From the NCBI GenBank assembly GCA_951406725.2, contig OX597816.1:12834001-12898000 (forward strand): a stretch of 64,000 bases of DNA, read 5' to 3'. Positions 3,943 through 21,485 of the stretch are shown here, piece by piece. Origin of the DNA: Octopus vulgaris (taxonomy: Eukaryota). The notes beneath the pieces were generated by a model. The model worked only from the letters and a program-made list of their open reading frames with translations, made no database searches and had not been told where the DNA came from. Position numbers and translations under genes: made by a program. Numbering within the stretch: the stretch's first letter is position 1; the number at the start of each line of letters is the position of its first letter.

Positions 3943-4139
3943 GAGAGTTCACGAAAAGAACAAAAGACGAAGACAGGTGGTGTACAAAACAAACAGATGC
4001 ATTAGTATAACGCAAAGGAATTGAAAAAGTCTTTCAGGTTTTGGGCCTACGCTCTTCCACAGAAAGGGACACAGAAAAAACAAGGTGAGAAAAAAGGAGA
4101 GAAAAAAGTGTGCAGTGGCTACCGATCTATCATGGCGAC
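3943..4139 (-). mobile_element. PLE-type terminal repeat (same family as 17831/18638) with decayed hammerhead
   Basis: Reverse complement aligns with 17850-18055, including ctgtggaagagcgtaggc. Confidence 0.75.
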
Positions 4140-14762: not shown

Positions 14763-16279
14763 CAGTGGTTTCTAAACTTTTTCGGGCTATCACCCCCTTG
14801 ACACGTTCCTAGTGCCCCCATCCCAACTAACCATCACAAACGTAGACCTTTTTCTGAAGCAAATTCAAAGCAACTGTGTTTCACAAATACGAGGGACGTT
14901 CAATAAGTAATGCCCCTGACCCACTTCCCTTAGAAGTAGAGCAACGAAACTTGGCACAGTTATTAGTCTTTTTCTACGTAGGAACCACCCAGAGTTACGC
15001 ATTTTTCCCATCGTTTGATGCGGCTCTGGAGACCGTTTTTGTAGAAGAACCAAGCTTGGTCCTCCAACCTCAACGTGACTTCAGAAATCAAGGCTGCATC
15101 ATCTGGGAAACGCTTTCCTTTCAAAAACAACTTCATGATTGGGAAGAGGTGAAAATCAGAGGGTGCAAGGTCAGGAAAGTAGGGGGGATGGGGAGGAGTT
15201 CATAGCCATACGCCTGTGCTTCTGATCTGGCGACAAGCGAGTTGTGGACCGGAGCGTTGTCCTGCAGGAGGAGGATGCCTTTGCTGATCTTGCCCCACCT
15301 CTTGATTTTGATAACTTCTCTTAATTTCCTCAAAAGTGAAGCATAATAGGCTCCTGCAATTGTGGTAACCTTTGCCAGGAAATCTGTCATCACTACTCCG
15401 TCCTGGTCCCAGAAGACTGTGAGCATGACCTTGCCAGCGGAGGGCTGCACCCTTGCCTTCTTTGGAGGGGGTGAGTCACTTCCACTGCATTGACTGGGCT
15501 TTGGTCTCTGGATCATCGTGATGGACCCAGGTTTCATCCTGTGTAATCAGTCTTTTGAAAAATTTTGACTCATCTTCTTGGCACATCTACAAATTCACCC
15601 TCGAGCACTCGACGCGTTCTTGCTTCTGGAAAGGCGTGAGCAACCTGGGAATCCATCTGGCAGATGAATGATAGTTTCCACAGACCCGGTACTAATCTTG
15701 ACCTCATGGGCTATTTGGCGAATAATTATGCGTCGATCTTCCAAAATGGCAGCCTCAACTTGACGGACAGATGCCTCATGAATGGCAGAAGGGGGCGACC
15801 ATATCTGGGAGCTGTTTCCACAGAGTTCCGACCATGTTTGAATTCCTGATGCCAACGTTTTACAAGGTCATATGATGGGGCATCATCACCATAAGTTACT
15901 TTCATTTCATCAAAAGTCTCCCGTGGTGTGCGTCCTTTCAAATACAAAAACCGGATCACTGCTCGACACTCAACAGGCTCCATTTCACACTTGCCTCGGT
16001 TCAAACACCTGTAAATCCGAAACCACAATTAATTCAGAGCTGTAATTTGCTACTTACTTTATAGAGATAGATTACTTTATATAGCTAGATCAAACAACTG
16101 CAAGTGGGTCAGAGGCATTACTTATTGAACGTCCCTCGTAAAATATAACTTAAAGAAACCCATTATTTTGTTGTTTTTACATGAATCGCTACGCTATTAT
16201 CAGCCCACGTTTCTTCAACACCCCACTGGAACTTTCCACTGCCCCCAGGGGGGAATATCGCCCATTTTGGGAACCGCTG
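14763..16279. mobile_element. hAT (Charlie/MER5-like) MITE hosting the mariner
   Basis: Ends cagtggtttctaaa / tttgggaaccgctg; 8-bp TSD gtctagag (14755-14762) / gcctagag (16280-16287), matching the NTCTAGAN target. Confidence 0.8.
14890..16138 (-). mobile_element. Full-length (1249 bp) mariner transposon with frameshifted DD34D transposase
   Basis: TIRs cgagggacgttcaataagtaatgcc.ctgacccactt at both ends, TA TSD; motifs RAVIRFLYLKG (HTH), ITQDETWVH, SAGKVMLTVFWD, LLQDNAPVH, HPPYFPDLAPSDFHLF. Confidence 0.95.
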
Positions 16280-17039
16280 GCCTAGAGTGTTACTCCAACT
16301 AGTGACTGTATCAGTAGAATGATCTTGATGATGTTAATAATGATTTTGTTGTGCCTATTATATATCGTCTGCTTCCTTCATTTTCATGCTCTAAATTTTG
16401 TTATTTATTTTGGTTTGAGTGGATACATTATATCTAAAGGAGATAATGCATACAATATGAGGCAATATTTAAATTTATTATTATTATCAATTCCAACTAT
16501 TTTGAGAGTGGAAAATTATGAGGCTTGTCTGGTTTGTTTTCACCATCATCATCATCATTATCATCGTCGTCGTCGTTTAATGTCCTTGTGTCCATGCATG
16601 TTGGCATTTTTTGGAGGGTTTGACAGGATCCAGTGGGTCCCAAAATCAATGCCTTGCAAGCTGCAAGGCATGGATTTCAAAGTTGAAGAGAAAAACTTTG
16701 CACAGGTAGAATAATGAGTAGATCAAAGTGAGTTATAAGAGAATAGGCCAGAGGAGAACGGGTTTTCTACGTACATTTCAGAAGAGAGGATGATGGATGG
16801 TATGAATAAATACACGTAGGTTCAGGAAAAGTAGAACTCCTCGTAATCTTTGTAGGATTTTTCGAAATCAAACTGAATATTATACGTAGGAAACATGATT
16901 ATAATGATCAGTTTGTTTGGCTGGTGACAGGGTGAGAGCTTGGCAGCGGTTTAAAGCATCCATGTATTGGAGCATCTGCTCAAAGGAAAAAGAATGAAAG
17001 GTTGTATCAGAAAAATGACAGCAAATTCTGTTTCATACT

Positions 17040-17392
17040 TTCTTCTACTTGACTCAATCATAAGATTGAGGCCATATTCGCACACCGACTAAAGGAACTT
17101 TTAGTCGAATGAATCTACGTCATATATATATATTTTTTAAAACTGGTACACATTGTATCGGTTTTAGGCGAACTGCTAAGTTACGGGGACGTAAACACAC
17201 CAACCATAGTTGTGAAGCGGCGGTGAGAGACTGTCACAAAGATACACACCTGCACAAACGCTCACACGCTCACACGCACACACGCTTACACGCACACACG
17301 CTCACACGCACTCATGCACACACATATGTATGTACATTTTTTATTCTTTTACTCGTTTCACCTATGCAGCTGCGGTCATGCTGGAGCACCAC
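17040..17392 (-). mobile_element. SINE family B tail fragments
   Basis: gctaagttacggggacgtaaacacacc and tgctggagcacc motifs. Confidence 0.75.
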
Positions 17393-17431
17393 CGTGGGTT
17401 TTTGATTTCTTCAGTCTGGGTGTGTTTCACA

Positions 17432-17790
17432 TCAGCACTCCTGTTTGTGCCTTTGTCCCAGCTGTTGATCCATTTGATGAATAAGGGACATTGATTCCGC
17501 TGCCCTCGTCTGCACCTCATGTATGGCTGTTGGGTTATCCAGTATTAAGAAGAAGATATCTAGTTCCTTTTTGAAGGCATCTACTTCCACTTTATGCAGA
17601 TTTTTAAATTTTTGTGGCAGGACATTGAAGAGCTGTGGGCCTAGACTATTACAGTACTTGATTCTGAATGTAGATGAAGTGGATGGTAGCTTTGGTACTA
17701 TACATTGGAGGCCAGTTCTGGCATTTGTACAACACTCAATGCTAAAAGTATGTACTAGACCTTGTAGAGATGTCCACATGTAGATTATTG
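17432..17790 (-). mobile_element. CR1-group LINE ORF2 3' fragment
   Basis: GPQLFNVLPQKFKNL..VDAFKKELDIF...DNP....RAAESMSL is a typical CR1/Crack C-terminus. Confidence 0.75.
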
Positions 17791-17830
17791 CATATCTGTG
17801 ACGCCTTATATATATATATATATATATATA

Positions 17831-18866
17831 CCTCTGGCCGAAATCAGATCGCCATGTTGATTCGTTAGCTACTGCACGCATTTTTTTTCTCTCCTTCTTT
17901 CTGTGTTTTTTTTCTCTCTGTGTATCTTTCTGTTGAAGAGCGTAGGCTCGAAACGTTAAAGACTTGTTTTATTTATATTTCCTGAGCGCCATACTAATAC
18001 AATTGTTCGTTTGTTTTCCACCTGCCTTCGTCTTTTGTTTATTTTCATAAAGCTTCCCGTTATATATATTATGCGCTCACGTGGTCTCACTTTCATCCTA
18101 TATTCTACCAATACCACTATCAACACTTACCTCTACCTTGGATTTTCTTTACCTCTTGGATACTTACCATTGGCTGCACCTCTCTTTCGCGGATCAAAGT
18201 GACTTTGCATTGATGTGAAATCCTTAAAAAATATACCACGACGTCTACACATTTCTCACCTTGAACTTTCAACCTTGAACTTGTTCGCATAAACTGTCCC
18301 GTTTGTTGTATTTTTATTTTCTCTTATATTACCACTTTTTTTTCGCTATCCTTTTTTCTATTTTTTTCATACGATAATTTTTGTTTTTTGTTTTTTTTTT
18401 TGTTTTTTCGAACGTTTTTTTTCTGCTATCCCATCATGCCGGATCCTAGGTCCTACCTCCTCACCCTCCATCACCGTTTGAAGGATCATCTCCGTTCTCT
18501 TCCTGTATATTGCCTTCAGCCGTCCGTTAATCTCTCTCTACTTCTTTTTAAAAAAACCCGCTTCTCTATTATCAACCCTATTATCAACCCTATTATCTCC
18601 CCTTATTTCGCTCTCGCGTCTCATGTTTGATCTTTGACCTCTGGCCGAAATCAGATCGCCATGTTGATTCGTTAGCTACTGCACGCATTTTTTTTCTCTC
18701 CTTCTTTCTGTGTTTTTCTCTCTCTGTGTATCTTTCTGTTGAAGAGCGTAGGCTCGAAAAGTTAAAGACTTGTTTTATTTATATTTCCTGAGCGCCATAC
18801 TAATACAATTGTTCGTTTGTTTTCCACCTGCCTTCGTCTTTTGTTTATTTTCATAAAGCTTCCCGT
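17831..18866 (+). mobile_element. PLE-derived, retrozyme-like unit: two ~230-bp direct repeats, each with a hammerhead-like motif, around a ~570-bp spacer
   Basis: 17831-18061 is nearly identical to 18638-18866; tcttt CTGTTGA agagcgtaggctc GAAA(c/a)g tt aaaga at 17925-17962 and 18731-18768; flanked by (TA)n. Confidence 0.75.
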
Positions 18867-18923
<57 letters not shown>

Positions 18924-19424
18924 AGTATACTGTTCTGTGATGGTAAGATCAACAAATATTCCATTTGGTGAGAGATGGTTATCACTTTATAAACACAATA
19001 TATGATTTTATGTACTACTATTAGTTTCGTGTAATGGGAGCATGCCAAAGAGTGTTCTTAACATGTCTGGTGTCCTAGCTCAAACTTCGGGCACTGATCA
19101 CAAGATCTAAGATATTGAACTCACAAATGCCATGTTCACCTCTTTCTAAGAATCGAGGGACATCTGCGTGAAAAGGATTGGCGAATTTTTGACTTGTTGT
19201 GTAGAGGCCAATTCCGCCGGTGGGAATAGTTCTCCACAATAGAAAGCGTAGTATTGTATTCGGTCGATCATTCGCTTCTCTTCAGCTCAATATATTAAAG
19301 AACATAATTCAATGGCTTTATGAATCCTTGTGTGTTGGTTTCTGCTTTTAAACTATTCTAGTGATTCGTTGTTTAGCTGCAGGACATTCGTGATCAAGCG
19401 GATCTGATGATTCTAATGACGGCC

Positions 19425-19687
19425 GTGGCGGTGGTGGCGATGGTGGTGCTGTGGTAGTGATGGTAGTAGTAGTAGTAATAGTAATGGTGGCGGTGATGGT
19501 GGTATTGGTGGTATTAGTGGTGATAGTGGCAATGACTGGTAATGTTTGTATTGTCGTACAACTGAGGGAAGATTTTGGAGTTCATAGATATAGGGCAAAC
19601 TTGATGATAATGATGATGATGACGACGACGAAAACGATGACGATGATGATGATGACGGGGATGATGATGATGATAATGATGATGATA

Positions 19688-19754
<67 letters not shown>

Positions 19755-19910
19755 CGACTAAGATGACGATGATGATGATGACGACGATGATGACGACGAT
19801 GATGATGATGATGATAATGATGATGATGAGGATGATGACGAGAAGGAGGATAATGATGGCAAGGATAAGAATGACAATGATGATAACTACGACGACGGAG
19901 ACGAAGGTAA
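19425..19910. repeat. (GGT)n/(GAT)n trinucleotide repeat field
   Basis: Direct reading; source of the poly-M/poly-I ORFs. Confidence 0.95.
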
Positions 19911-19989
19911 GGATAACTATTAAATGTATACGCATGTTGTAATACTATTTTTATACACGTAGTATTTTATAAACGCTTGCTAATATATA

Positions 19990-20200
19990 AGGTGGCGAGC
20001 TGACAGAATTGTAACCGCGCAGGGCAAAATTCGTAGTGGCATTTATCCGTCTTTACGTACTGAGTTCAAGTGCCACCTAAAGGTCCACTTTGCCTGTCAT
20101 TTTCTCTAGGTCGATAAGTACAAATGAAATAATTGGATCGATGTCATGAACGTTGCCCCCTCCTCTGAAGTCTCTGGCCTTGTGCCAAAATTTGAAACGA
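19990..20200 (+). mobile_element. Older SINE family A copy
   Basis: ggtggcgagctgacagaattg head, gagttcaag B box, ctggccttgtgccaaaatttgaaac tail. Confidence 0.8.
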
Positions 20201-20301
20201 ATATATATATAATAATTACATATATACTTGGTAACACATACAATACGCACAAATGCAGAGATGTATTAAATATACACATTTTGTAAAATATATAATATTT
20301 G

Positions 20302-20718
20302 AGGGCGGAGAGCAGGCAGAATCGTTAGGACGCCGGGCGAAATGCTTAGTGCTATTTCGTCTGCCGTTAAGTCCTGAGTTCAAATTCCGCCGAGGTTGAC
20401 TTTGTCTTTCATCCTTTCGCGGTATATTAAATAAGTACCAGTTACACACTGGGATCGATATAATCGACTTAATCCGTTCGTCTGTCCTTGTTTGTCCTCT
20501 CTGTGCTTAGCCCCTTGTGGGTAGTAAAGAAATAGGTATTTCGTCTGCCGTTACGTTCGGAGTTCAAATTCCGGCGAGGTCGACTTTGCCTTTCATCCTT
20601 TCGGGGTCGATTAAATAAGTTCCATTGACGCACTGGGGTCGATGTAATCTACTTTATCTCTTTGTCTGTCCTTTTTTGTCCTCTACGTTCAGCTCCCTTG
20701 TGTGAAATAAAGAAATAA
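20302..20718 (+). mobile_element. SINE family A dimer
   Basis: Junction gtagtaaagaaatag|gtatttcgtctgcc at ~20535. Confidence 0.9.
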
Positions 20719-21485
20719 ATATATATAATATATTTACACACGTAATCTATAATATATATATGTATGTGCGTGTTTGTATGTATATATATATATATATATG
20801 TATATATTGGCAGGGCTTACTGCTAGGGAGTCGGCCGATGCTAGAAATAGACCATCAACGATCACCAGTATATATATATATATATATATACGTTGTAATA
20901 TATAGAAATATATTCATCTTGTAATACAGTTTCCCAGTTGAATATCGTTGTTGTTCCCTGTGTTTTCTTCTTGTTGATGTTAATGTCTTTATAAATCCAT
21001 ACAAGATGTTCCTTGTATGGTTGCATTCACAAAAGCATTGATTGCTTCTGACTGTTTAGCAGTACACTGTCTGTAATAATTATTCATTTGTAAATGAGTA
21101 GTTTAAAACCACATATTTGTATACATGCAAGTACAAACGTGGACACATACAAACACGCATGCAGTTACACACACGTACGTAGGTACATGCTTAGATAAGC
21201 GCACAAACACACACACACACACACACATACACACAAATGTGTATGTAAGTATAGATGAATACATTTATACATACTTAAATTCATGCAAGCATACGTGCCG
21301 GTATATATGTGTGGGAGGTTATAGAACGGCAGACCAACAAAAGGTTGTAAACAAACAAATATGTTTACGTTTCGTTTTACCTTATTACACATCTACAGAC
21401 AAATAAATACACACACACGCTCATACACATGCATATATGGATGTATACCAATGCATATATGTATATATGTATATATGTATATATG

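Follow-up and report, generated by a model that had tools for sequence, protein, structure and literature searches.

A doubly deleted Penelope-like element with two hammerhead-like motifs in Octopus vulgaris, and short tandem arrays made by its family

Results

Organisation of the unit

The window, a 64,000-nt stretch of the Octopus vulgaris genome, contains a unit with (TA)n on both flanks and two near-identical repeats spaced 806–807 nt apart, each with a hammerhead-like motif (Table 1). Aligned over 240 bases, the repeats show 2 substitutions and a single 1-nt indel. Our measurements bear out what a sequence-only reading had described here: twin repeats in (TA)n, hammerheads 806 nt apart, both motifs with stem I, CTGTTGA, stem II, GAAA and a palindrome, and a C-to-A change in the second copy.

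We number positions (u) along the 4,469-nt unit of a natural copy of the same family, L045 (u1–4469). Against this copy the window unit reads u4234–4467, u1–279, u528–756 and then about u4170–4467; it thus amounts to 1.3 units in the partial-tandem order normal for Penelope-like elements (PLEs), with two stretches absent. The second gap takes away the rest of the ORF, including the reverse transcriptase (RT) and endonuclease, and most of the 3’UTR; its 3-nt microhomology was measured against an allele with three 12-bp repeats, as found in L049. An intron was considered as the cause of the 250-bp UTR gap and rejected, as GT..AG ends are lacking on both strands and the two sides share T-run microhomology. 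No target-site duplication is readable at the (TA)n insertion site of the unit. The spacer, earlier described as non-coding, is more than that: besides UTR sequence it holds the ATG at 18436 and the first 44 codons of the ORF; with 44 codons left the element cannot encode its own enzyme, as had been proposed. On sequence comparison, the parts of the unit are almost certainly pieces of an autonomous PLE.

Other putative transposon remnants lie nearby. Left of the insertion (17432–17800, minus strand) is a reading frame that we take to resemble the C-terminal end of a LINE protein, and the reading frames at 14858–15546 presumably resemble a mariner-type transposase fragment. At 3959–4138 on the minus strand a sister family has left a decayed solo pseudo-LTR, with 74% identity and a damaged hammerhead.

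Table 1. Coordinates of the window unit and sizes of the related short units
Feature	Position or size	Strand	Remark
(TA)n microsatellite, left of insertion	17807..17829	.	sequence
5’-truncated upstream pseudo-LTR (repeat 1), u4234–4467	17830..18064	+	99% identity to L045 unit
Minimal type I hammerhead-like motif 1, family type	17925..17962	+	U6, U7, extra A, ACGU palindrome, GUU triplet
Motif 1 stem I	TCTTT 17925–17929 / AAAGA 17958–17962	+	sequence
Motif 1 core and extra A	CTGTTGA 17930–17936; A 17937	+	sequence
Motif 1 stem II, then GAAA	GAGC-GTAG-GCTC 17938–17949	+	sequence
Motif 1 palindrome	ACGT 17953–17956	+	predicted cut after 17957; sequence
PLE 5’UTR, first part, u1–279	18064..18342	+	100% identity
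Junction 1	18335..18342	+	about 250 bp of 5’UTR missing; C-T7 microhomology; single in genome
5’UTR end and ORF start, u528–756	18338..18568	+	96.6% identity; ATG 18436, 44 codons
Junction 2	18566..18572	+	about 3.4 kb missing; single in genome
3’UTR directly 5’ of repeat 2, about u4170–4233	18569..18636	+	comparison with L045 unit
3’ pseudo-LTR (repeat 2)	18637..18870	+	stops at the family’s usual 3’ end, then (TA)n
Hammerhead-like motif 2	18731..18768	+	C15.2>A at 18760; would-be cut after 18763
(TA)n then (TG)n, right of insertion	18867..18921	.	sequence
C13 short unit	536 nt		junction twice
C11 short unit	551 nt		junction twice
C8 short unit (L093:4225–6539, 18.600–18.603 Mb)	492 nt, five hammerheads		junction five times
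C2 short unit	467 nt		junction twice
C22 (L108, 41.232 Mb) and C12 (L109, 69.411 Mb) short units	481 nt each		same junction, twice each
C5:64.05M short unit	507 nt		junction once
C5:62.9M, C14 and C30 short-junction loci			junction once each
C1:19.64M			further short remnant

The parent family

Searching the 2.8-Gb genome with the window unit gave 1,455 first-look candidates, 40 of which were scored. At 38 of the 39 non-self places the match ran through the first 513 bases, was interrupted by an insert absent from the window (roughly 170–300 bp, mostly about 250 bp) and resumed over bases 509–739; the remaining place, C13, is another short unit. We then fetched 20 loci at 8–10 kb, drawn from the 39 non-self hits, a set biased towards copies with the ORF start: 19 are repeat-to-repeat units of 4.0–4.6 kb, and the other is the C13 unit. 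Upstream partial copies in the family have variable starts, from u2778 or earlier to u4344.

From the ATG that corresponds to window position 18436, the ORF is open over 1,069–1,081 aa in six of eight checked copies. One copy (L033) gives a Pfam RVT_1 match above the cut-off (E 2.5e-7) and a weak GIY-YIG match below it (E 0.0065), the GIY-YIG motif being present; we recognised DKG, GxxMG and YIDD motifs, a CX4CxxC linker (residues 836–844) and a GIY-YIG core with two Cys (874–889). A PDB sequence search with the ORF returned 0 matches. A CX2-5CxxC linker is a signature of Neptune and Nematis elements (PMC8557442), and judged by its sequence motifs the window unit belongs to an endonuclease-bearing PLE family of the Neptune/Nematis type. 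The repeats are, as the earlier reading had it, PLE terminal repeats with minimal hammerheads of the dimer type.

Some members have unusual arrangements. At L043 (C10, 7.33–7.34 Mb) two full-length units lie head-to-tail and run into a third repeat. Four full-length copies on small contigs (L128–L131; C35, C36 and C44) share an identical 5’ truncation at u3934, and are probably duplicated segments or unplaced haplotypes rather than independent insertions. Between 66 and 81% of sampled monomer words were present in runs under four organism labels; the family is probably common to close species.

The window junctions themselves are unique. Junction 1 has 1 match genome-wide and junction 2 has 1 exact match, still 1 when 2 mismatches are allowed, with 0 matches for reversed controls. 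Family sequence is left at u756 in 2 places, once in the window and once through a point change in a copy that bears the ORF, and we found no recurrence of this ORF-side breakpoint elsewhere in the genome. The window unit has not spread in this assembly; a single-copy layout is among the outcomes that the sequence-only reading had itself named as counting against a retrozyme. The unit is one insertion of an autonomous Penelope-like retrotransposon that lacks two internal stretches; it likely arose in one insertion event and is likely inert. It resembles a dead, non-autonomous PLE derivative, and the locus as such is ordinary transposon debris.

Hammerhead-like motifs and the U6 core

Motif 2 is motif 1 shifted by 806 nt, apart from the C15.2>A change, which likely arose after insertion. 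Stem I, the extra nucleotide at 9/10.1, G10.1-C11.1, GAAA and the NUH triplet agree with minimal type I PLE hammerheads, but both copies have U6 and so depart from the CUGANGA core with its A6; the sequence-only reading had already called this U non-canonical. An Rfam scan of window positions 16000–21000 gave zero hammerhead model matches at E<=1, its 10 matches all being microsatellite with scores below gathering. Folded in isolation the motifs are no better than shuffles (z -0.60 and +0.06), and for the 806-nt circle the predicted fold is less stable than those of 20 shuffles (-89.8 against -97.7 +/- 6.8 kcal/mol). In the predicted monomer fold U4–U7 would pair with A14–G16.2, forming an inactive hairpin. 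The assignment of the motifs draws on core layout and homology rather than on folding energy.

The hammerhead register is fixed by a relative, L092, with a canonical A6 core, the same stem II and a stem I pair swapped from C-G to G-C. An alternative core register, UUGAAGA, would break stem II and stem I, and was rejected also because position 7 shows the variation between families expected of N7. L092 (near 2810, minus strand) represents an abundant related A6 hammerhead family with a 3-nt stem II loop.

In a dimer, stem III would be built from the palindrome, ACGU, which is intact in copy 1 and broken in copy 2. A heterodimer at the window would pair AU, CG, GA and UA, and the G-A mismatch in this 4-bp stem argues against double cleavage at the locus. 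With U6 in both motifs and stem III broken in one, release of an 806-nt monomer here is predicted to be poor.

Genome-wide, the family motif has 5,066 exact matches against 0 for a reversed control and is therefore not a chance pattern; A6 occurs in 31 of the 5,066. A looser pattern covering sister families gave 29,641 matches, 22,072 of them with U6. Counting the first 100 listed looser-pattern matches by hand, we found 78 U6, 19 A6 and 3 C6, with position 7 taking all four bases in the same set. U6 is a family-level trait and not a defect of one copy. Sister-family copies keep 34–36 of 38 motif bases as against 69–75% outside the motif (60% in one copy), a contrast inflated by the fact that these copies were found via the motif itself. 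The conserved motif may retain some activity, perhaps protein-assisted as in an anole PLE, where cleavage needed the ORF protein and was dispensable for insertion in vitro (PMC11167929). Our literature search, with subscription journals and bioRxiv supplements outside its scope, found no U6 PLE hammerhead described; Lunse et al. (2017) may hold one.

Short tandem arrays in the same family

A search with 141 bp of 5’UTR gave 312 candidates, of which 40 were scored, representing 37 distinct loci. Of these, 31 continue into the ORF, 1 was left unfetched, and a short junction was seen at the other 5, namely the window, C8, C2 and two places on C5; further short units were added by targeted searches. 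In all, ten loci besides the window join u272–309 to u4140–4290, just upstream of the hammerhead, and at six of the ten this junction is repeated 2–5 times, with units of 467–551 nt (Table 1). The donors at short-junction loci L050, L094, L095, L078, L079, L147, L150 and L141 are u272, ~281, 292–293 and 309.

Certain breakpoints recur. The acceptor u4264 was used twice; the array junctions seen there at C8 and C5 are blunt. The donor u292 was used at five clear loci, and all ten matches that leave family sequence at u292 enter 3’-end sequence upstream of the hammerhead (for about 14 bases only in the case of C1), although a search aimed at u292 itself shows a hot spot and not a share. Array junctions lie about 45–150 nt upstream of the core, and none of them coincides with the predicted cut site. 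The newborn arrays match their parent element at about 99% identity, and their junctions are exact.

Of the six arrays with several junctions, five start inside the spacer, 5’ of the first junction, an arrangement that unequal crossing-over from a one-junction parent cannot yield. A single event in which the RT crossed the junction several times is the likely origin, with either a circle or one RNA entered again and again as template; the layout of the array junctions favours repeated copying at insertion over later expansion. The C8 array, whose units are identical apart from one indel, may be a case of later expansion; a 93-bp inverted piece of the repeat lies at its 5’ end. The 481-nt junction of C22 and C12 has 4 matches genome-wide, and the two loci differ in their 5’ ends and flanks. 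A private base change common to both C12 junction copies shows that the two loci had different templates, and the presence of this unit at two loci may reflect second-generation spread or repeated formation.

The short arrays likely record repeated copying of a short RNA by RT, and new retrozymes could possibly arise in this way. Our literature search did not find arrays with repeated junctions away from the cut site, subscription journals and bioRxiv supplements being outside its scope. The retrozyme reading fails at the window locus; the broader intuition behind it has support elsewhere in the genome, as the same family has made short tandem arrays with one hammerhead per unit.

Origin of the window unit

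The retrozyme reading held that a read-through transcript could be cut at both hammerheads to give an 806-nt monomer or circle, which the PLE enzyme would reinsert. A junction near 17957/18763, which that reading put forward as a sign of circles, would look the same in linear read-through of any tandem copy. The unit does have two tandem motifs and no coding capacity, an enzyme is available in trans, sister short units exist (the 481-nt one at two loci), and an origin of retrozymes from PLE repeats has been proposed (bioRxiv 10.64898/2026.07.22.740005). This account must nevertheless contend with a unit found at one locus only and comprising 1.3 units rather than an array, with the broken stem III of copy 2, with U6 at a position where A6 matters (PMC7151607) and with array junctions that never fall at the predicted cut site. 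The spacer, moreover, proves to be nothing but the usual 5’ portion of an autonomous PLE, a second outcome that the sequence-only reading had named as counting against it. We regard spread of the window unit as a non-autonomous retrozyme as very improbable.

Instead, we think it reasonably probable that the unit formed during copying at insertion, by the same route as the arrays. RT/endonuclease from an intact copy would nick (TA)n and start copying at the normal 3’ end; the RT would skip from about u4170, a little upstream of the hammerhead, to codon 44, skip again over 250 nt of UTR at the T-run, and stop when about 60 nt remained before it would have crossed the first skip for a second time. 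The same route is favoured because the window acceptor (about u4170–4181) and the start of the UTR deletion (u272–279) fall in the array breakpoint zones, and because the unit ends about 60 nt short of that second crossing. The acceptor overlap is partly a matter of ascertainment, since only acceptors near the 3’ end yield a short unit. Against formation by copying, each window junction is present once and u756 is not recurrent.

The junction microhomologies of 8 and 3 nt equally fit DNA repair, by which a full-length 4.5-kb insertion could later have suffered two losses, leaving the same inert remnant. Such later deletion finds agreement in the microhomology at both junctions, in the non-recurrence of u756, in the 2 substitutions between the twin repeats, which equal the most diverged 2 of 19 other pairs, and in the internal deletions known from copies L037, L082 and L098. 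It needs, however, two separate deletions in a copy only about 1–3% diverged, one ending and the other starting in array breakpoint zones, and we consider it rather unlikely.

Among the matches listed from 4 runs, no contig spans either window junction, as would be expected if the short unit were an assembly collapse of a longer repeat copy. Collapse between twin repeats, though, removes one repeat and would not bring non-homologous internal points together, complete copies of 4.5 kb are well assembled in this genome, and similar UTR-to-3’-end joints occur in independent DNA contig sets. These joints were seen in three contig sets of DNA type or unlabelled, with sides of 23–28 letters that are weak alone. 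Contigs of runs X7, X11, X13 and X17 (guessed to be RNA) contain family sequence with no joints listed; contigs cannot show absence, ends or circles. We judge assembly collapse the least probable of the explanations, with hardly any chance of being correct.

Discussion

Formation during copying would place the window unit beside the arrays, and together these observations bear on how PLEs make tandem copies and on how retrozymes arise from them. The small tandem arrays likely show how ribozyme repeats are born. Tentatively, and with the odds against it, we offer a wider picture in which retrozymes are now emerging from this PLE family: short RNAs that combine the pseudo-LTR with the initial ~290 nt of 5’UTR would be closed end to end or re-entered at u292, with the hammerhead cut site unused, and copied round into arrays, the 481-nt unit being already on two contigs and the 806-nt window unit a larger product. 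The U6 core (about 22,000 matches, invisible to CUGANGA descriptors) would then be a damped, or protein- or metal-gated, hammerhead that lets RNAs stay uncut. A very abundant natural hammerhead with U at a position supposed to be invariant suggests that standard searches undercount PLE hammerheads. Comparing U6 with A6 is a simple way to ask whether the motif must cut at all, and the A6 family of L092 offers a natural control for the U6 families.

Comparison with known systems

Like the window family, the Neptune/Nematis PLEs (Craig et al. 2021, PMC8557442) have a single ORF with RT, CX2-5CxxC linker and C-terminal GIY-YIG, pseudo-LTR partial tandems, microsatellite targets and a hammerhead in the pseudo-LTR. 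The window copy differs in having lost the ORF, and its family in having a U6 hammerhead; the motifs place the family in the Neptune/Nematis type as a whole. Pseudo-LTRs arise from partial tandems and hold the promoter (PMC2377424).

The window motif shares with the minimal hammerheads of PLEs (Cervera and de la Pena 2014, PMC4209133) a short stem I, the extra nucleotide at 9/10.1, G10.1-C11.1, a palindromic 15.2/16.2 and the C-G-U-U ending common in their Fig. S3; the extra A and this ending are usual in that class. By contrast, all 56 rows of that figure have A6, the descriptor fixing the catalytic boxes, where the window family has U6. A natural substitution at core position 6 is also known from phage Bcep176, as A6C (PMC7151607): there it is C and not U, in another type and host, with measured Mn2+-preferring activity, whereas the U6 motif is known from sequence. 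Measured in a hammerhead other than the octopus one, an A6C change at 0.3 mM Mg2+ brings the rate down from 0.30 to 3.6e-6 per min (Table 1 of the same source), a loss of about five orders of magnitude that is much smaller in Mn2+.

Animal non-LTR retrozymes, as described in PMC7229834 and bioRxiv 10.64898/2026.07.22.740005, resemble the window unit in being non-coding, with tandem hammerheads, kinship to PLE terminal repeats and a GC content of 38%. They are multi-copy, with monomers of about 300 nt (PMC7229834), mostly canonical hammerheads, and demonstrated cleavage and circles, and a retrozyme is defined by at least 2 consecutive units, each with a complete hammerhead (the bioRxiv text). 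The window unit is instead single-copy, 806 nt long and colinear with a living PLE, with one broken motif, and differs from retrozymes in unit count, copy number, size and core. The bioRxiv text argues for a PLE origin of retrozymes from sequence similarity and suggests local expansion of terminal repeats; the sister arrays of 467–551 nt fit the retrozyme layout better than the window unit does, but each at one or two loci.
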